This document shows positions 6,946 to 46,636 of a stretch of 64,000 bases of DNA, piece after piece. Source of the stretch: Dictyostelium discoideum. Taxonomy: Eukaryota. Each line of letters starts with the position of its first letter. Positions within the stretch are counted from its first letter, which is position 1. Made by a program: the position numbers and the translations under genes. Below the pieces are notes generated by a model that had not been told where the DNA came from, made no database searches, and worked only from the letters and a program-made list of their open reading frames with translations. Location: positions 4,224,001-4,288,000 of the forward strand of contig CM000152.2 in the NCBI GenBank assembly GCA_000004695.1. The letters are read 5' to 3'.

Positions 6946-7268
6946 ATATATTTAAATTAACTTTTTTTTGAAAATTATGTATTTATTTCCTCAATTTTTT
7001 TTAAATTATTTATTTTGAATTGATATATTTTAAAAAAATAAAAAAAAAAAGATAAAATGTCGTGTTTGTTGAAAAAATTTTAAAAAAAAAAAAAAAAAAT
7101 TAAAAATATAAAAAATAAAAAAAAAAAAAATTGAAAAATTGGAGGTAAATAATGATTTAATTGTTTTTTTTTTATATATTAAATTAAAAAAAAAAATATC
7201 CAAATGAAATGATTATTTAAAATATGAAATTTTTATTTAAATAATATAGTGATATTTTATAATATTTT

Positions 7269-7313
<45 letters not shown>

Positions 7314-7395
7314 CTATTTTCATTTCATTTTTCATTTTTTTTTTTTTTTTTTTTTTTTTATTTTTTTTAATTAAATGTTTTAAAAATTAATTTAG

Positions 7396-7556
7396 TTGCC
7401 AAATATCATGACAATACCATCACTTGAAAAAGAAAATAATAGTAGTGAGAGTAGTGAAAATAAAAAAAGAGAACTTGAAATCACTGAAAAAGATAATGAT
7501 GTTGATAATAAAGACGATGATGATCAAGCAATTTTGAAAAAAAGAGTTAAAATTGG

Positions 7557-7653
<97 letters not shown>

Positions 7654-7920
7654 ACAGATGAAGATGGAGATTTTTTAAATAAAATTCAAGTTGATTATAA
7701 TAAAACTATTTATAGTGAAGTTTTACAAGAAAAGGATCAACACATTTTCAATTTAAAAAATAAAAATTATGAACAACAAAAACTAATAGAGAATCAACAA
7801 GATTTAATTAGAGATTTAAATAGAAAAATAAATTCATTGAAAATTAATTTTGGTGATTCAATAGAACCATTATTTTCATTAAATTTAAATTATGTTGATG
7901 AGTATGTATATTTATGGAAA

Positions 7921-7979
<59 letters not shown>

Positions 7980-9157
7980 AATAAATACTAATAATTTTTT
8001 TTAAAAAAAAAAAAAAAACAGTAATAAATTATCAGAATTAGAAAATTTTTTATTTGGATATTTTTATAATTTTAGTAAGAAAAATCAAAATAATTCAGAA
8101 CCTGGTGAAGTTGAAAAAGAGTATATACTTGGTAATATTTCTCATTATTATGAAGGTGGATTTGTATTAAATAGGTTTGGAAATAAAGAATTTGCAGATA
8201 TGGCTACAACAATACCTTATAATTATTCAAGAATTCCAATGTATAGAATTGATAAAAGTGATTTACACAATGATAATAATAATAATAGCGATGAAAATGA
8301 CCCAAATACTGAAGCTGAAAAGAAATCATTTAGTGGAATTTGTTTCAACTGTTCACAAAAGGGTCATTCTGTAAATGATTGTCCTTATACATATTCATAT
8401 AAAAGAGTTCAACAAAATAGAAAAGCATTCTTAGAAAGTAAACCAACAAAGCAAGTATTAGTAATAAAAATAAAAATAAAAATAAAAATAAGAATAAAAT
8501 AATAATAAAAATTTATTAATAATAAAATAAATAATTAGCGAAAGATATTTCTTAACAATTGAAAAAAATGAAAAGAAATTAAATGAATCACTGCAACAAC
8601 AACAACAACAACAACAACAACAGCCACACGATCTACCACCTCCTCCCCCTCCACCATCATCTCCTCCCCCTCCACCCCCACCATCACCTCCCAGAGTGCC
8701 ATTTCTACCTCCTCCCCCTCCTCCTCCTCCTCTTTCCCCCCCTCATTCTTCTTCAAGTTCAACTTCTACTACTATCACACCAACCGAATCAACATCAACA
8801 TCTTCATCCGCATCCACATCCACATCGACCTCAACATCAACATCAACATCAACATCGAAAAATAATAATAATAATAATATAGAAACTAAAAATACAACAT
8901 CATTATCAGAATCAATAATTAGTGGTGATGATATTGTTGTTGAATTTGATCCATCAAAGAATAAAAATCTTTTTATACAAAATACAAAAAGTACACAAAA
9001 AGAAGAAACTACAGAATCAAATAAATTTCAAGAAAATGAAGATTATATTGAATTTCCAAGAGACCTTTTTGAACAAGCAGAAAATAAAGAAACTGAAGAA
9101 TCATACTATAAAACAAATTATGATCCATCATTCTTTACAAATTTTATAAATTCAAAA

Positions 9158-9211
<54 letters not shown>

Positions 9212-9727
9212 TTTAATAACTATAATAATAATTTCAATAATTATAATAATGGTAACTATGTTGGTTATAACCAACAGTATGGTAACCAAAACTTTAATAG
9301 CAATATGTATGGATTTTATAATGGAAATAATAACATTAATAATTATCCATATGGAAATAATTATAATAATTATGATCATCATAGAAATAATATGTACAAT
9401 AGTAATTATAACAATAGTTATAATAATAATAATAATTTTAATAATTTTAATAAAAATTTTAATGGTTGTGGTGGTTTTGATGATAGAATGAGAAACAATG
9501 ATAGATATAGAGATTTAGAACCTAATAATAATAATAATAATTTTCAACAAACATTACCAACAACAAATTTAAATAAAAATATAATATCACCACCAAAACC
9601 ACCAAAATCGTCAACTATTTCAAATGTAACTACGTCAGTGGTAGTATTAAATCAACCAACTCCTATATCACCACCGCCATCACAAAATGAAGCTGTTGAT
9701 ATGGATACTGAAGATGGGGAATTGTAA
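7396..9727 (+). CDS. CCHC zinc-knuckle, N/Q/P-rich protein; proposed exons 7396-7901, 8022-8454, 8576-9727
   Basis: Exon 1 donor is GTATGT at 7902 and the acceptor is ...acag at 8021. The knuckle is CFNCSQKGHSVNDC. The long in-frame poly-Q/poly-P/N-rich frame upstream of the ATG at 8696 implies a spliced exon 3. The only phase-consistent exon 2/3 junction is donor GTATTA at 8455 with acceptor gaaaag at 8575, which is uncertain. Confidence 0.55.
7558..7650 (+). repeat. (AAT)n ~31 units coding poly-Asn in exon 1 of the CCHC gene
   Basis: Perfect trinucleotide array. Confidence 0.9.
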
Positions 9728-11580
9728 ATAAAATTTAAAATTTAAAATTTAAAATAATTTAGTTTCTTTTTATTGTTTTTATTGTTTTTAAATCTTTTTT
9801 AATTTTAAAATTTTGTGTTATTGTTTTATTGTTTTATTGTTTATGTTTTAAATCTTGAAAACCAGTATCAAAACAATGTAAATAAGAGAATTACCAGCAA
9901 GTATCCAAACTATTACTTGCTTTAATACGTTTATAACCAATGACCCAGGGTGAAGATATTTTTCACAAACTGTAATTCGTGAAGTTTGGGAAGAGCAGAT
10001 ACTCATACTGAGTTTGTTAGCATTCATTAGAAAATGTGGTGTCCATTTACAAGTTGAATCTGTTAAAGTTTCCAAATTATTAGATGATGAATTTCTCAAC
10101 CTCAAAAACATTGACCAAAATGAAATATTATATTACATATATATCAAATATAATTGTAATGGTTGTTCAGGAAATATCACAATATCTATTTTCGACCTCC
10201 TTTATTATCAAAGCTAAATGTCCAAAATGTGCAAGAAAAAGAGGAGAACATCAAATGATTTAAACAAATACCACTTGAAGAACATAAGTCCAATAGATCT
10301 TCAAGAACATCAAATATCATGGAGCACCATTAAAAGCAATAATATCATGAAAACGGATGATGGCCAACAACTTTTAAATTTTGTAATGGCAATCAAAGTG
10401 TATATTAAGAGATACATTGGATTCTATTGAAAACAAATATGCCATTTATAATAAAACAAACAAATGAATTGGCAACCTTTTTATTTGATAATCCATTGGG
10501 AAGAATAAGCCATATCTTATTAAATGACCATTTTATTTTTCAATTAAATGACGTTGAAAGAGTTACTACTAAATAATTTAATTCAAATTTAAATAAAAAT
10601 ATAATACCACCAAAAACCACAAACTATTTCAAATGTAACTAACTACAACTAAATCCTATATCACCATCATCATCATCATCATAATCACAAAATGAAGCTG
10701 TACAGAAGATGGAAAATTGTAAATAAAATTTAAATTTTAAAATCTAAAATCTAAAATAATTTATTTTTGTTTTATTGTTTTTATTGTTTTTATTGTTTTT
10801 ATTGTTTTAAATCTTCAAAATCAGTATCAGAACCATGATAAACAAAAGAATTACCAGCACGTAAACTATTGGCGACAGCACTTGCTTTCATACCTTTATA
10901 ACCATTGAAACAATAATCATAAGCTAATCTTGAAACTGATTTTTGAAGTGGGAATGGTGTTTCGATCTCTGTGAATTCTTTTACAGGTGCCCATTTACAT
11001 TGAGCGATTTCAGATGGATCACTATTGATTTCACTTGACAACGGCTTAAGAGCACAGATAAAATATATGTCACCTCTGTTAAAGGCATAGTTGTGCAACT
11101 GACGAAGGCCAAGAATGCTCACAAACTCAGTACGAATACCTGTCTCTTCCCAAACTTCACGAACTGCAGTCTCGCAAATATCTTCACCTGGGTCGTTGGC
11201 TCCACCTGGTATCTTCCATTTATCAGGTCTTTGCTTCTCAGTGATCAATAGAATTTCATTACGGTCATTAATTACAACACCACCACAACCAATGAAATGA
11301 GAGGTATAGTGTGGTAATTTATTTGGTTCCCCGATTGGTAGCCATTTAGTCAACATTATGTAATTGGATTGGCAATGATGAAATGAGAATCCATTCTCTA
11401 CCAATGTTGGAATTAATATTGAATTAGTTTCTGGTATCTCTATCCAAATGCCTCTACGTTTATTCTCTGTCCAAAATTGTAAACTATTTTTAATGATTTC
11501 TTTAAATTTACTAACACTATCTTCCCCACTACCCTTTGGGTATTGTGTTGTATCTTTAACAATAATACCATCGAAAATAT
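9569..11580. repeat. Tandem segmental duplication of ~1 kb, units ~9569-10573 and ~10574-11580, spanning the convergent 3' ends of the CCHC gene and the Nudix gene
   Basis: caaatttaaataaaaatataata...tcacaaaatgaagctg...attgtaaataaaatttaaa...ttattgttttaaatctt is present at both 9569-9860 and 10574-10812. Unit 1 keeps an intact CCHC 3' end and a decayed Nudix 3' end. Unit 2 keeps a decayed CCHC 3' end and the intact Nudix 3' end. Confidence 0.7.
9848..10570 (-). pseudogene. Scrambled pseudogene fragment of the Nudix hydrolase C-terminal region, including a ~90-bp inverted Nudix-box segment
   Basis: 9848-9935 matches 10806-10900 (~70% identity). Residual translation ...CKWTPHF...ILAGNSLIY corresponds to Nudix ...CKWAPVKEF...LRAGNSFVY. 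9936-10027 is the reverse complement of 11110-11200, the GEDICETAVREVWEETG box, with a frameshift. Confidence 0.65.
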
Positions 11581-11929
11581 CTGGAATACCAGCTAATATA
11601 CCCTTTTCTATTAATTTAGGATCATTATATTTTTCATTTAATTCTATTTTCTTATTATCTAATAATTTACTACTTTCACTCATATTTTTTGTAATTTTTA
11701 ATAAATTTGTTTTTGTTGTTGTTGTTGTTGTTGTTATTGGTTTTGAACAAAAATATCGAATATTATTATTATTACAATTTAATTTAAATTTACTATTATT
11801 ATTTTTATTATTATTATTATTTTTATTATTTTTATTAATAGTATTTATGTTATTACAATTTATTTTTTTATTTATATTGTATTTATTTATAATATTTCTA
11901 AAAATTAAAAATGAAAATTGCGATTTCAT
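10799..11929 (-). CDS. Nudix hydrolase (NUDT6-like) with an N-rich N-terminal extension; alternative start at Met83 (11683)
   Basis: Nudix box GGANDPGEDICETAVREVWEETGI in a single ORF. The upstream 82 codons are AT-rich poly-N and may be UTR or a transit peptide. Confidence 0.85.
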   Translation of the reverse strand: MKSQFSFLIFRNIINKYNINKKINCNNINTINKNNKNNNNNKNNNSKFKLNCNNNNIRYFCSKPITTTTTTTKTNLLKITKNMSESSKLLDNKKIELNEKYNDPKLIEKGILAGIPDIFDGIIVKDTTQYPKGSGEDSVSKFKEIIKNSLQFWTENKRRGIWIEIPETNSILIPTLVENGFSFHHCQSNYIMLTKWLPIGEPNKLPHYTSHFIGCGGVVINDRNEILLITEKQRPDKWKIPGGANDPGEDICETAVREVWEETGIRTEFVSILGLRQLHNYAFNRGDIYFICALKPLSSEINSDPSEIAQCKWAPVKEFTEIETPFPLQKSVSRLAYDYCFNGYKGMKASAVANSLRAGNSFVYHGSDTDFEDLKQ

Positions 11930-12245
11930 GAAGATTTATATAATTTTGAAAAAAATAAAAAAAAAAAAAAAGAAAAAAAAAATAAAAATTAAAAATAAAA
12001 AAAAATTAAAAAAAAATTAAATTCATAGAAAAATGGGATTTAAATTGATTCTGTTTATTTTTTTTTTATAATTATTTTTTTTAAAATTCTAAATATAAGT
12101 TATTATTGGTATTAATATTATTATTTTTAATTTTTTATTTTTTATATTTTTTTTATTTTTTATTTTTTTTCTAGAGTCACTAAATTCCCACCATCTAACT
12201 TTCTAGAATCATTAAGAATAAATTATTAAATATTAAAATTCATAC

Positions 12246-12277
<32 letters not shown>

Positions 12278-12632
12278 AATTTGATTATAAGGATTGGTTA
12301 AATTCCCTTTAATTAATAAATTATTGGAATTTAAAAATAATTAACCACCATTTGAAATAAATTTTTAATTTTATGTTTTTTTTTTTCATTTTTTTTTTTT
12401 ATTTTTTTTAAATTTTTTTAATTAATTGGTAAGATTTAATTTTATAATCACGAAAACTATCTAATTATTTAGTAATTACTATTGTGTGGGTATGTTTAAA
12501 TTTTTAATTATGATAATTGGATTAAAAAAAAAATAAAAAAATAAAAAAATAAAAAAAAATAAAAGGAAAAAAAAAAAAAAATAAAATAAAATAAAAAAAA
12601 AAAAAAATAAGGTTGTTTGATCAAAAAATGAA

Positions 12633-12664
<32 letters not shown>

Positions 12665-12949
12665 TTTATTAATTTTTAAAAATTTACAACCACATTTAAC
12701 TTTTTATCATTTTTTTTTTTTTTCTTTTTAAAAAACTATATCTCTGTAAATAAAATTTTCACACACACACTCACTCTAACCGTATACCCTTAAAAAGAAA
12801 AAATTAAAAAAAACAATAAAAAAAAATCATATGGTACAATAAAATATCACTCAATTAAAAGAAAACTAATAACTATATATAAACTATAGCTAAAATAAAA
12901 TAAAATAAAATAAATAAAAAAATAATAAATAGTTAAAATAATAAGGAAA

Positions 12950-13984
12950 ATGATTATGAATCAATTGTAAGACTTTTCAACTTTTTTTTTTTTCCTTTAT
13001 CTTCATTATTTTTATTATTATTATCATTATCATTATTATACTAATTTAAATAAACCTATTTATTGTATAATATAATAATAATAATAATTTTATAGTAATT
13101 ATACATGTAATGTTATAAATCAATTTAAAAAGACAGTTTTAAAGACAGAACAAGATTTTATTGGAGCACCAAATGGAATTATCAATGTGAATGAAAATAA
13201 TTTAGATTCTCCAACATTACCAAAGAATTATCATTTACAATCACCAACTAAATTACCTTATAGTGCATATATTGCTAATCATAATAATAATAATTCAAAT
13301 AATAATTCAAATAATACTAATAATTCAAATAATAATAATAATAATAGTTCAAATAATTTTAATATTAATGGAGTATCATCACTTTCACCAATACTATCAC
13401 CAACATCTATAAATAATACAAATTCACCACTATTAACTAGTGTTAATGGAGGAAATACCGGTAGTGGATTATCAGTTAAACTTAATTTATCAAATAATAA
13501 AAAATCAACCATTTATATATTAGTAAACATTGCAATATGCACTATAAGTAATTGTCATGATTCTATCATTATATTAGGACCATGTATTGATTTCATAGAG
13601 TTATCAGATTGTTCAAAATTAACAATCATTTCAATTACAAAATCAATAAGGATAAAGTATGTTTTTAAATGTATATATATATACACACACACACACACAC
13701 TAAAAATAAATTTACTAATTTTATATATTTATTTTTTAGATCATCAAATAATATTTCATTATATATTTGTTGTAATCAAAAACCTATAATAGCTTCAGAT
13801 TGTATTGCTATTAAACTTGCACCATATAATACACATTATCCAAATTTAGAGCAACAATTAATTACATCAAAACTATCAACAACTTTATCAAATAATTGTT
13901 GGAATACACCTATAATTTTAAATTCATTTTCACCTTTAAATTCTCCAAATATTACCAATACCGATACCAACACGAATAATAATA

Positions 13985-14021
<37 letters not shown>

Positions 14022-16787: not shown

Positions 16788-16858
16788 GCGTATGTGGTCT
16801 AGTGGTATGATAGCTGCCTTCCAAGCAGTTGAACCGGGTTCGATTCCCGGCATACGCA
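16788..16858 (+). tRNA. tRNA-Gly (anticodon UCC)
   Basis: 71-nt cloverleaf. Acceptor GCGTATG/CATACGC, T-arm CCGGGTTCGATTCCCGG, anticodon loop CTTCCAA. An A-box-like TGGTCTAGTGG and a B-box GGTTCGATTCC are present. Confidence 0.9.
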
Positions 16859-23069: not shown

Positions 23070-23330
23070 TTGCAAGTTATATTTATGTTAACTGGACAAG
23101 AGTCGAACTTATGTTCTTTTTCCGGAAGTTCCGAGAATATTGGTTTGTAGAAAAATATATGCGTATGCCGGGAATCGAACCCGGTTCAACTGCTTGGAAG
23201 GCAGCTATCATACCACTAGACCACATACGCTATGTTGATGAGATTTTGGGGTAAATGCCCGAATAAGTTTTAAAAAAATTATTGATGATTTTGATTGATT
23301 AAATTTTTTTTGGTGATGTAGAAAAATTTT
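23070..23330. repeat. Inverted duplicate of the tRNA-Gly locus unit (tRNA plus ~100 bp upstream and ~60 bp downstream flank), partner at ~16690-16950
   Basis: The upstream flank atcaccaaaaaaaattta...cttattcgggca.ttacc.caaaatctca.caaca and the downstream cggaacttc.ggaa.agaacataagttcgactctt are conserved in both copies in opposite orientation. Confidence 0.75.
23160..23230 (-). tRNA. tRNA-Gly (anticodon UCC), identical to the copy at 16788-16858
   Basis: The reverse complement of 23160-23230 equals the 71-nt tRNA-Gly sequence exactly. A T-run follows on the minus strand. Confidence 0.9.
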
Positions 23331-42052: not shown

Positions 42053-42690
42053 ATCTAGATATTTATAAATTTATTATTATTTAGTTTATTATGTTTGATA
42101 TTGTATTATTATTTTATTTATTATCTAATTTAATTTTAGTTTTTTAAAATCTTTATATTTTTTTTTTTCACTTTTTTATTTTATTTTTATTTTGTAAATG
42201 AACTCAATGAATTTTTTAATTTAATTATAAAAAAAATTATTTGAAAAAAAAAAAAAAAATAAAAAAAAAAAAAAAAAATTGTTTTTTTTTTTTTTCAAAC
42301 AAAATATGCATTATTTTTATTTTTTTTATTTTTTTTTTTTTATTTATTTTCTTTTATTTTATTTTTATATTTCCTTTTTTTTTTACCAAAATAAGAATGA
42401 TAAATGTTTTTTTATTAAACCAATTTAAATTGGCATTTTTTTATTTTAAATGAACAATCTCCATTACAAAAAATAAAATAAATTATCAAAAAAATAATTA
42501 ACCTTCAGTATTCGTCCATCGGTTAAGTTTTATCAATTTTGTCTTATTTATAAAAAATAGAGTTTTTTTTGAATTGGGTACCGAATGGATGAGATCTTAG
42601 GTCACACAGATTTAACCAAACTTTCCTACCCTTGCTTTAAATTATAAAAAATAATTTTAATGTAATATTAAATTTGAAAATATCAAAAAT

Positions 42691-42763
42691 GCCCGGCTAG
42701 CTCAGTCGGTAGAGCGCCAGACTCTTAATCTGGTGGTCGGGGGTTCGAGCCCCCCGTTGGGCG
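42691..42763 (+). tRNA. tRNA-Lys (anticodon CUU)
   Basis: 73-nt cloverleaf with anticodon loop CTCTTAA and T-arm GGGGGTTCGAGCCCCCC, followed by a T-run. Confidence 0.9.
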
Positions 42764-42766
42764 AAT

Positions 42767-44061: not shown

Positions 44062-44092
44062 TGTGATCTATCTTATACTAAATCTAAAATTT

Positions 44093-44165
44093 CGCCCAAA
44101 GGGGGGCTCGAACCCCCGACCACAAGGTTAAAAGCCTTGCGCTCTACCGACTGAGCTATCTGGGC
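44093..44165 (-). tRNA. tRNA-Lys (anticodon UUU)
   Basis: The reverse complement gives gcccagatagctcagtcggtagagcgcaaggcttttaaccttgtggtcgggggttcgagcccccctttgggcg, with anticodon loop CTTTTAA. Confidence 0.9.
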
Positions 44166-44212
44166 ATTTTTGGAAATTTCGAAATTAAAAACAACTACAG
44201 AACGATTTTTTA

Positions 44213-45599: not shown

Positions 45600-46314
45600 T
45601 TTAATAAGTTAGGAGTTGAACCTGTGATCTATCTTATTTTTTTTTTGATATAAATAAACTATTGTAGTATACAATTAGTATGTTATTTTTATTTATTTAT
45701 TTTAGGTTTTTTAGTTTTTGTGAATTTAAAATAGTATGTTATTTTAGATTAGGTAATTAATAATTAATTGGTGGTGTAATTGTTGGAATTGGTTCATTAG
45801 TGTTTATGCTCCATTCTTTTTTAAATTTTTTGATGGTTTCGGACCATTGGGTTTCTTTTTGAGTTTTTGTGAGGTTGTTTTTAATTGAGTATTGGTTAAA
45901 GTTCTTGAATATTCCAATCTTATTAGCTTGTGCCATTTTGATTTTAATATATCATAATCTAGTGTTGTGTTGTTTATTTGGTTGTTCTAATTATCAATTG
46001 ATTGAGTTATATTGATGTCAAATAATGATTTGCATAACCATATCCATATTTGGTGAATAACTAATGAGATTATGTTCCAATATGCATGTGTTCTGACTAG
46101 ATCAAGATTTGTGTTTATATAATTCCAGTTGAACCTGTATTTTTTATATTGTGCGTTTTCTGCAAAATGAAAATTAATATTGATAGTTGGATCTGGTTTA
46201 AATGCTTTGTTGTTTGTTTGTGGTTTATAGATGAGTGTGTATAATTTTGTTGTTTGGTTTTTTGTTAGTGACCAGTTTTTGATAGTGATCTATCTTATAC
46301 TAAATTTAAAATTT
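45600..46314 (-). mobile_element. Degenerate retroelement-like sequence plus a duplicated tRNA-Lys(UUU) 3' flank; includes an orphan ex-B-box copy (45613-45623) not attached to a tRNA
   Basis: gttgaacctgtgatctatcttat at 45613 and gtgatctatcttatactaaatttaaaatttcgccc at 46280 copy the flank at 44057-44095. No ORF longer than 60 aa. Confidence 0.3.
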
Positions 46315-46387
46315 CGCCCAAAGGGGGGCTCGAACCCCCGACCACAAGGTTAAAAGCCTTGCGCTCTACCGACTGAGCTATCTGGGC
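46315..46387 (-). tRNA. tRNA-Lys (anticodon UUU), second identical copy
   Basis: Identical 73-nt sequence to 44093-44165. Confidence 0.9.
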
Positions 46388-46636
46388 ATATTTGAAAATT
46401 TTAATTTTTTTACAAAATCACATTGATTTTTAATGACAATCGAAAATTTAAAATTTTAAATAAAAATAAAACAAAAGCAATAGAAATCTTTTTTTTTTTA
46501 AAAACAATTCTATCAAGATTTGAATTGAAATTGATTGAGGTATTAACTTCATTCTAAACCTAAAAAAAAAACTTTTTTTTAAATTTTTTTTTTTTTTTAT
46601 TTTTCTATTTTTTTTTAGAAAACACATCGCACCACC

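Follow-up and report, generated by a model that had tools for sequence, protein, structure and literature searches.

The locus examined here raises the question of how the ends of two convergent genes came to be present twice, and of where the DNA that now parts the two copies came from. In the window (the whole stretch of 64,000 nucleotides from Dictyostelium discoideum that was analysed), a CCHC zinc-knuckle gene and a Nudix hydrolase gene, both of them intact, converge across a gap of 1,072 bases (Table 1). The former has a zinc-knuckle Pfam match on an upstream exon (8200-8502) and orthologs of 698, 687, 701 and 596 aa. The latter matches Nudix_hydro (PF18290, 3.3e-24) and NUDIX (PF00293, 2.6e-21) and, as judged from its pre-Nudix domain and its NUDIX domain with a Nudix box, is a NUDT6-like Nudix hydrolase. 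Exactly the same Nudix protein is encoded on CM142509.1 of assembly GCA_054883475.1, and orthologs were found across dictyostelids (at 96%, 94%, 90% and 65% identity). The gene order is the same in D. citrinum and D. purpureum, both of which are in the single-copy state, with gaps of 61 and 90 bases, respectively. Ancestrally, the two genes would thus have lain tail to tail with their ends 60-90 bases apart. A third ancestral gene between them was also considered and was rejected on the basis of these short gaps and the kept gene order.

Table 1. Positions of the two genes, the repeat copies and the junction DNA in the window
Feature	Positions	Strand	Basis and remarks
Intact CCHC zinc-knuckle gene	~7396-9727	+	Called gene in the matching assembly (L001), 703 aa
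Last exon of the intact CCHC gene	8696-9727	+	ORF list; stop codon 9725-9727
CCHC tail, copy A (functional 3' end, left end of unit A)	9564-9727	+	Against 10584-10722: 92% identity without gaps, z = 18.8
Spacer, copy A (AT-rich)	9728-9845		Against spacer B: 90% identity without gaps
Nudix tail, copy A (broken, last ~35 codons)	9846-9943	-	z = 28; nhmmer E = 6.9e-17; 89% identity without gaps
Inverted copy of the Nudix-box segment (89 bases)	9937-10025	+	Parent 11113-11199 (-); blastn, tblastn, nhmmer
Orphan junction block (no detectable donor)	10026-10583		Composition; homology searches
CCHC tail, copy B (broken, last ~50 codons)	10584-10722	+	Alignment and frames
Spacer, copy B	10723-10798		Alignment
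Intact Nudix hydrolase gene, NUDT6-like (376 aa; parent of the Nudix fragments)	10799-11929	-	Pfam and orthologs

The initial annotation had described a tandem duplication of about 1 kb across the convergent gene ends. Pairwise alignment, which had been proposed as a check, revealed a significant direct repeat: 9564-9943 and 10584-10908, arranged head to tail and each comprising the CCHC 3' end, the spacer and the Nudix 3' end, gave a local alignment score of 118, whereas shuffles averaged 18 ± 3 (z = 32), with identities of 69% when gaps are counted and 89-92% when they are excluded. The proposed length did not hold. The collinear unit measures approximately 380 bases, and its two copies do not abut, being parted by about 640 bases (9944-10583). 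Of the two gene ends in each copy, one still works and the other is a fragment broken by stops and frameshifts, in line with the one functional and one decayed end of the initial annotation. Nudix tail A, whose tblastn match covers aa 343-375, is disrupted by a stop and a frameshift and has lost 9 bases. CCHC tail B contains stops, frameshifts, a deletion of 10-12 bases and an expansion of a CAT repeat. Spacer A, which holds a small secondary repeat (9779-9796 and 9838-9856), presumably serves the CCHC gene as 3' UTR and terminator region, and spacer B presumably does so for the Nudix gene. When gaps are excluded, the four solid pieces are 92%, 90%, 89% and 88% identical to their parents. Such near-equal values would be consistent with one age and one event; a single event cannot be proved in this way because equal divergence shows only similar age.

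Flanking low-complexity AT-rich DNA can in principle mislead assemblers, and we therefore considered whether the structure might be a collapse, an expansion or a chimera created during assembly at ~10573. No evidence for such an artefact was found. Assembly GCA_054883475.1 (L001) is identical to the window across 9400-11700; homopolymer lengths differ elsewhere, and it is therefore independent of the window assembly. Moreover, two diverged assemblies contain diverged orthologs of both copies, and the copies differ by approximately 10% in substitutions and by many indels, unlike a spurious duplicate. The probability of an assembly artefact is practically negligible, and the structure is real. 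At 12305-12367, the window and L001 seemed to differ by a micro-inversion, which on inspection was not an exact inversion.

A comparison with related Dictyostelium genomes had likewise been suggested. Besides L001, D. citrinum and D. purpureum, it covered two diverged assemblies labelled D. discoideum, L002 and L003 (GCA_054859385.1 and GCA_054859355.1). Both contain orthologous A and B copies in a more deleted state, with gaps of 283 and 352 bases between the two genes, and share the B-specific deletions and repeats, including the deletion and the CAT repeat of CCHC tail B. They also have the variants specific to spacer A in common, and the variants specific to spacer B (AAAATCTAAAATCTAAAAT) are common to the window, L002 and L003. 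Both lack Nudix tail A. Bootstrap values were 99.8% for the A clade and 100% for the B clade, and the distance between A and B copies (0.15-0.20) exceeds that within each clade (0.03-0.06). Since these relatives hold orthologous copies and D. citrinum and D. purpureum are single-copy, the duplication is, on these sequence comparisons, older than the split of the three lineages, about as old as the split from D. citrinum, and not recent. With regard to the order of the duplication and the D. citrinum split, the three topologies received bootstrap values of 7%, 68% and 25%, and one polarised site favours duplication after the split.

Further examination of the DNA between the copies showed that its left end is an inverted Nudix-box segment. 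The initial annotation had reported such a segment of about 90 bp within the inner Nudix copy, and its existence was corroborated: the 89 bases are 83-84% identical to their parent (z = 33, nhmmer E = 2.6e-16) and, when read on the plus strand, encode NDPG*RYFSQTVIREVWEE. Its location is not that of an in-place inversion. Collinear homology ends abruptly at 9943, just where the inverted piece begins, and the inverted piece itself ends abruptly at 10025. It thus adjoins the breakpoint, and its parent sits approximately 205 bases past the last collinear base (10908), a displacement of about 205 bases from the in-place position. A larger in-place inversion was rejected, as the remaining sequence scored at z = 0.4 when aligned in inverted orientation. 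At the first breakpoint, the inverted piece and the last bases of Nudix tail A coincide over a 7-base motif, which is imperfect (CCAATGA in the copy, CCATTGA in the direct parent and CCAACGA in the inverted parent), the sequences having diverged by approximately 10% since the event. At the second breakpoint, and with the same divergence, an ATTC motif depends on the CKW anchor, which is not significant, being real. Such short junction homology may be taken as weak support for template switching. Although L002 and L003 do not contain the inverted piece, its divergence from the parent (12-17%), rather than direct observation, suggests that it was already present in the common ancestor.

These observations bear on the explanation given in the initial annotation, a simple tandem duplication with a unit of about 1 kb (9569-10573 and 10574-11580), after which the inner Nudix copy would have decayed heavily and some 90 bases of it would have been inverted in place. 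It would account for the spacing of the matched pieces (about 960-1020 bases) and for two weak Nudix-like anchors that are direct and collinear, namely 10038-10051 (parent 10986-10999) and 10504-10548 (parent 11595-11642), the right one of which beats all 500 shuffles in its own diagonal band. However, semi-global alignment of the interior (10052-10509) to 11000-11600 yielded z = 0.57 against shuffles, compared to z = 21 for a positive control, and local alignment of 10026-10583 to 10909-11700 gave no significant similarity in either orientation (z = 2.9 direct, 0.4 inverted). A protein profile on six frames and an nhmmer DNA profile found only the known pieces and no Nudix body in the block. 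Neither anchor reaches significance (nhmmer E = 0.6 and 1.1; p = 0.13 after allowing for the selection of band and strand), and in a diagonal-restricted test they fail or pass only in a band picked post hoc. The equally old flanking pieces of the same copy retain 88-92% identity to their parents while the interior is at chance, and point decay cannot erase part of a copy yet spare its neighbours. A decayed Nudix body in 10026-10583 was thus sought by blastn, tblastn, profiles, semi-global alignment and k-mer sharing, with the two non-significant anchors as the only outcome. The decayed Nudix copy that had been placed at 9848-10570 must therefore be given up for about 550 of its bases. The 1-kb explanation is largely refuted for the interior and quite improbable as a whole, and the two collinear anchors may be a hint that more Nudix-derived sequence was once present.

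What, then, is the junction DNA? Its GC content (0.27-0.30) is coding-like and unlike that of local intergenic DNA (0.08-0.15), and therefore the insert came from coding-like or other GC-richer sequence. Of its approximately 640 bases, 89 have a template; the rest has no match in the window or, beyond the orthologous pieces, in the loci of the relatives, which retain little of the block (10053-10114 in L002 and 10063-10188 in L003). Short local templating of the block interior was rejected, as 11-14-mers shared with 7000-14000 are not in excess on either strand. We also looked for a donor gene at the protein level, and neither a word-indexed search of six frames nor an exhaustive HMMER search of the plus-strand frames returned anything.

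Composition and the lack of a donor in the window or the relatives' loci would both fit a foreign or mobile insert of 640 bases (a transposon fragment, captured cDNA, or organellar or extrachromosomal DNA) that entered at staggered breaks about 380 bases apart, with fill-in generating the flanking repeats. The geometry is exactly that of repeat, insert and repeat (9564-9943, 9944-10583 and 10584-10908). On the other hand, no frame matches a transposase, a reverse transcriptase or any other protein, and there are no terminal repeats and, on direct reading, no poly(A) tail at either end. Typical target-site duplications are far shorter than 380 bases. Dictyostelium TRE retroelements target tRNA genes, and a tRNA-targeted retroelement was rejected given that the closest tRNA gene lies at 16788, about 5 kb away. 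A mitochondrial, rRNA or other structured-RNA origin was discarded as well (Rfam at permissive E-values yielded only sub-threshold chance matches), and blastn against bacterial plasmids and phages gave no matches. In addition, no other copy exists in the window or in the relatives' loci, and the left 89 bases were templated locally from the Nudix gene and would not be part of a transposed element. Such an insertion is possible, if unlikely.

We consider it probable that the D. discoideum group carries at this locus a fixed structural scar without function, left by one complex duplication with a junction insertion that arose through template switching or break repair. In this scenario, a single rearrangement would have copied approximately 380 bases, made up of ~160 bases from the end of the CCHC gene, the spacer and ~110 bases from the end of the Nudix gene, and would have placed about 640 additional bases where the two copies meet. 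The first 89 of these would be a reverse-orientation copy of Nudix-box sequence lying about 205 bases off. The likely route is template switching of the FoSTeS/MMBIR type, repeated several times in the course of replication or break repair; repair of staggered breaks with captured filler DNA would be an equivalent mechanism. A template-switch origin is an assumption for the ~550 donorless junction bases. Both genes would have stayed whole because the duplicated segment began and ended inside them, with each gene retaining its own spacer copy and the inner Nudix and CCHC tails being truncated from birth. The inner DNA would later have drifted and shrunk by deletion, to 1,072 bases in the window lineage and to 283 and 352 in the sister lineages. 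The initial annotation had viewed the locus as a snapshot of subfunction-neutral decay, a view that is misleading: no complete gene was ever duplicated, both fragments having been incomplete from the outset, and hence no redundancy existed that could have been partitioned.

Neither a coding nor an RNA signal was detected in the block. The ORFs listed there (9848-10111 on the minus strand, and 10014-10217, 10218-10430 and 10427-10576 on the plus strand) have no Pfam matches and no homologs. Two spurious ORFs had been pointed out in the initial annotation, 9848-10111 (minus) and 10014-10430 (plus). The sequence exists in both cases, but the latter is two ORFs separated by a stop at 10215-10217. 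The absence of Pfam matches and homologs supports the view that these ORFs are spurious. The longest open frame is unexceptional (p = 0.09 by Markov resampling), and the idea that the plus strand was recently coding (10014-10430, with its single stop) was dropped on this value and on a codon-position composition that is not gene-like. No Rfam family reached its threshold in the block. For annotation, these four ORFs should not be called genes, and the tails at 9846-9943 and 10584-10722 and the inverted piece at 9937-10025 should be labelled as fragments rather than exons.

We also weighed whether the region might be a functional element under selection, whether through a newly arisen small gene or a small RNA in the block or through a selected separation of the two 3' ends with private terminators. 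Both spacers and CCHC tail B are retained in all three lineages, and the sister lineages keep a common piece of the block of 60-125 bases (10053-10188). The ancestral gap of 60-90 bases might imply overlapping 3' ends, a situation that the duplication would have relieved. There is also a weak match resembling a C/D-box snoRNA (10081-10126, 19 bits); however, this is far under the gathering score of 45 bits, and the C-box is not conserved in L002 or L003. Furthermore, the retained piece is 73-85% conserved, no better than neutral spacer (88%), the ORFs are lineage-specific, and a short gap suffices in D. citrinum and D. purpureum. A selected function is very improbable. No function is indicated, because the fragments carry stops and frameshifts, the ORFs lack homologs, no Rfam family is present and most of the block has been deleted in the sister lineages; neutrality would be the most plausible reading of these sequences, and the scar is an ordinary product of genome evolution. 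A bolder version of the preferred explanation, in which the locus is the phylogenetically bracketed fossil of a single MMBIR-type event with multiple template switches in an amoebozoan, the ~550 bases derive from a lost, distant or foreign donor, and each gene gained, from a 3' spacer of 60-90 bases that both had once used in common, a private copy that selection then kept, appears distinctly unlikely. If it were true, selection would explain the survival of both spacers in three lineages despite ongoing deletion of the intervening DNA.

A literature search found no description of this locus, and several known systems offer partial parallels. MMBIR is characterised by duplications mixed with inverted segments, short homology at junctions and nearby templates (Hastings, Ira and Lupski 2009, PMC2621351). 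The present locus resembles FoSTeS/MMBIR duplications in its discontinuous duplication with an inverted segment, a template about 200 bases off, putative short breakpoint motifs and extra sequence at the junction. In contrast to those events, which span kilobases to megabases, it measures hundreds of bases, belongs to a social amoeba, and is ancient and fixed, with junctions blurred by ~10% divergence and most junction DNA without a template; here, the mechanism is inferred rather than observed. Filler or captured-DNA insertions with long target-site-like duplications at staggered double-strand breaks share the repeat-insert-repeat layout and an insert composition unlike that of local intergenic DNA, whereas this locus has no donor and no mobile-element hallmarks, and its insert is partly templated locally in reverse. 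Similar to unprocessed (duplicated) pseudogene fragments, truncated gene ends with stops and frameshifts lie beside their parents, but neither fragment was ever a complete gene copy and the Nudix-box one is inverted and displaced. Segmental duplications of 15 kb or more have been reported in laboratory stocks of D. discoideum (Bloomfield et al. 2008, PMC2643946). Those occur in the same organism group, are recent and polymorphic among the stocks, and contain whole genes; the one described here is ~0.4-1 kb long, ancient and shared by diverged wild lineages, and the only gene content in it is fragments. It illustrates the appearance of a template-switch-like rearrangement long after the event and raises no major question. 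The locus thus provides a small, well-bracketed case of a compact, AT-rich genome gaining and then eroding intergenic DNA: the gap grew from 61-90 bases to 1,072 and then shrank again toward 283-352.

The locus lies between two convergent genes, encoding a CCHC zinc-knuckle protein and a Nudix protein, whose stop codons are 1,072 bases apart in the window. The Nudix product contains the Pfam domains Nudix_hydro and NUDIX and is therefore a NUDT6-like Nudix hydrolase. The exact 376-aa protein was located on one NCBI chromosome (GCA_054883475.1, CM142509.1, 6.43 Mb), and its nearest relatives carry the NCBI label D. discoideum (96% and 94% identity), followed by D. citrinum (90%) and other dictyostelids; the DNA of the window is from Dictyostelium. 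The first ~80 codons of the ORF (about 11684-11929) are low-complexity and N/K/T-rich, ahead of the conserved domains, and distant orthologs give a query coverage of only about 75-85%. The real start may be an internal Met at MSESSKLL, or the N-terminal extension may be a targeting sequence.

Features of the locus and of the surrounding window
Feature	Positions	Strand	Details
Nudix gene	10799-11929	-	376 aa
CCHC zinc-knuckle gene	end at 9727	+	ORF list, Pfam
Direct repeat, copy A vs copy B	9564-9943 vs 10584-10908		CCHC tail, spacer, Nudix tail
Inverted piece vs parent	9937-10025 vs 11199-11113		Nudix box
Orphan junction block	10026-10583
L002 on window	9407-9824, 10053-10114, 10620-11298
L003 on window	9400-9808, 10063-10188, 10656-11298
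snoTBR7-like match (weak)	10081-10126	+	C/D-box snoRNA-like, Rfam
tRNA genes	16788-16858, 23160-23230, 42690-42764, 44092-44166, 46314-46388		two Gly-TCC, one Lys-CTT, two Lys-TTT

The CCHC tail, the spacer and the Nudix tail are repeated head-to-tail (69% identity over 392 columns of a gapped alignment; z = 32 against dinucleotide shuffles), and a DNA profile from four orthologous Nudix genes recovered the Nudix tail at E = 6.9e-17. This four-ortholog profile also detected the inverted piece at E = 2.6e-16; it matches its parent with 83% identity over 90 columns (gapped alignment; z = 33 against dinucleotide shuffles) and reads NDPG*RYFSQTVIREVWEE, the Nudix box, on the plus strand. Given these alignments and profile matches, the repeat and the inverted piece described in the initial annotation are real, whereas its ~1-kb unit and its in-place inversion could not be upheld. 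With gaps excluded, identity to the parents is 92% for the CCHC tail, 90% for the spacer, 89% for the Nudix tail and 88% for the inverted box. Both inner tails (Nudix in copy A, CCHC in copy B) carry stops and frameshifts, and no further copies of the repeat pieces were found elsewhere in the 64-kb window. Spacer A also holds a small secondary direct repeat (9779-9796 and 9838-9856, TTATTGTTTTTAAATCTT, about 60 bases apart), part of which is found in L002 as well, which suggests further small duplications within the AT-rich spacer.

For the unit to be ~1 kb long, 10026-10573 would have to derive from about 10909-11580 by duplication and decay. Local alignment of these segments gave z = 2.9 (direct) and 0.4 (inverted), and when the interior (10052-10509) was aligned semi-globally with 11000-11600, the score remained at chance (z = 0.57, equalled by a reversed-sequence decoy), with z = 21 for the Nudix tail as positive control. 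When all six frames were searched for the Nudix body with a 14-ortholog protein profile, the C-terminal piece and the Nudix box came up, plus a very weak match at CKW(A/T)P, and nothing else. Two weak collinear direct anchors were seen, 10038-10051/10986-10999 (nhmmer E = 1.1; p = 0.13 within the expected diagonal band) and 10504-10548/11595-11642 (nhmmer E = 0.6; prominent only in a band picked post hoc). Divergence is the decisive argument: since the four solid pieces are still ~90% identical, point decay cannot have wiped out the 460-550 bases between them, and a decayed Nudix body in the interior is ruled out by this identity together with the chance-level score. Thus, the collinear unit measures about 380 bases, and the roughly 640 bases at 9944-10583 are junction DNA.

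As for the proposed micro-inversion, the parent of the inverted piece sits 205 bases deeper in the gene than the last collinear base; collinear homology stops at 9943 (parent 10908), and the inverted piece begins at 9937. A larger in-place inversion was also rejected, with the inverted local alignment of the remainder reaching only z = 0.4. The breakpoint has an imperfect 7-base shared motif (copy CCAATGA, direct template CCATTGA, inverted template CCAACGA), and the inverted piece breaks off right after GCATTC.

We infer that one complex rearrangement produced a ~380-base tandem duplication over both gene ends with ~640 bases at the junction, of which the first 89 are an inverted copy of a template 205 bases distant. 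Both ends of the duplicated segment lay inside genes, so that both genes stayed intact and the inner tails were truncated from the start; no redundant gene was ever there to decay, contrary to the decay after duplication proposed initially. Each gene has retained its own spacer copy, and the inner DNA is undergoing deletion in sister lineages. What the data demonstrate is the anatomy, the reality and the age bracket of the locus; the single origin, the mechanism and the neutrality are inferences. Discontinuous duplications mixed with inverted segments, junctions of short homology and templates close by have been described for replication template switching (PMC2621351); the duplication, the inverted segment and the nearby template match this pattern, and the imperfect 7-base motif may represent the short homology. 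The geometry could also be described as DNA inserted at breaks staggered by about 380 bases, and the sequence alone is compatible with either description. The locus is a fresh example of an already known type of event, nearest to FoSTeS/MMBIR-type complex non-recurrent duplications, filler-DNA insertions and duplicated pseudogene fragments. It is unlike the duplications known from laboratory stocks of D. discoideum, which arose recently, span at least 15 kb and include whole genes (PMC2643946).

The duplication structure is neither an assembly artefact nor recent. GCA_054883475.1 is identical to the window across 9400-11700 and 99.7% identical over 13 kb; the differences, homopolymer lengths and one small patch, indicate that the two assemblies are independent. 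The patch (12305-12367, AT-rich, upstream of the Nudix gene) contains 10 clustered substitutions, every other difference in the 13 kb being a homopolymer length; the cluster does not amount to an exact inversion, and local misassembly or hypervariability may lie behind it. Orthologous copies are carried by two diverged assemblies labelled D. discoideum, L002 (GCA_054859385.1; 283 bases between stop codons) and L003 (GCA_054859355.1; 352 bases), both retaining CCHC tail B and spacer B. The B copies of all three share a 10-12-base deletion, a CAT-repeat stretch and B-specific spacer variants, and bootstrap analysis grouped the A copies at 99.8% and the B copies at 100% (A-B distance 0.15-0.20, against 0.03-0.06 inside each clade). 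The copy-A Nudix tail runs straight on from spacer A as in the parent, and thus the window keeps ancestral material deleted in L002 and L003. In D. citrinum and D. purpureum (gaps of 61 and 90 bases; the latter with the unchanged gene order TBCC-Nudix-CCHC-BRF1-Pex3) the locus is single-copy, so a short gap without a third gene is ancestral. Either copy is 0.16-0.19 from D. citrinum, about the same as A-B, and the three topologies relating the duplication to the D. citrinum split received 7%, 68% and 25% of bootstraps; at one polarised site, A and B share AACTATTTC where the outgroups have AACAATTTC, which favours a duplication later than that split. The Nudix proteins of L002 and L003 are 96% and 94% identical to that of the window and their spacer DNA is 4-6% divergent, which suggests that the name D. 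discoideum covers deep lineages or cryptic species.

The orphan junction block has a coding-like GC content (0.27-0.30, against 0.08-0.15 in local intergenic DNA). The idea that its plus frame is unusually open was dropped on account of resampling (p = 0.09) and a codon-position composition that is not gene-like. The block has no Pfam match, no Rfam family near threshold, no nearby tRNA, no repeats of note (terminal or internal) and no excess of short locally templated k-mers. No homologs were found for any frame in a 5.8-billion-protein index, for the plus frames in an exhaustive HMMER search of 1.84 billion representatives, or for the block among plasmids and phages, elsewhere in the 64-kb window or, orthologous pieces apart, in the relatives' 13-kb loci. 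The snoTBR7-like match (19 bits, with the gathering score at 45; E = 0.6) overlaps the sole block piece retained in L002 and L003; its C-box motif GATGATGA is not conserved there, and the match is therefore probably due to chance. Nothing in the sequence points to a function, and the locus is presumably neutral; its main use is to caution annotators and to illustrate, on a small scale, how intergenic DNA is gained and eroded. Five tRNA genes are also present in the window, and in Dictyostelium TRE retroelements typically target such genes.
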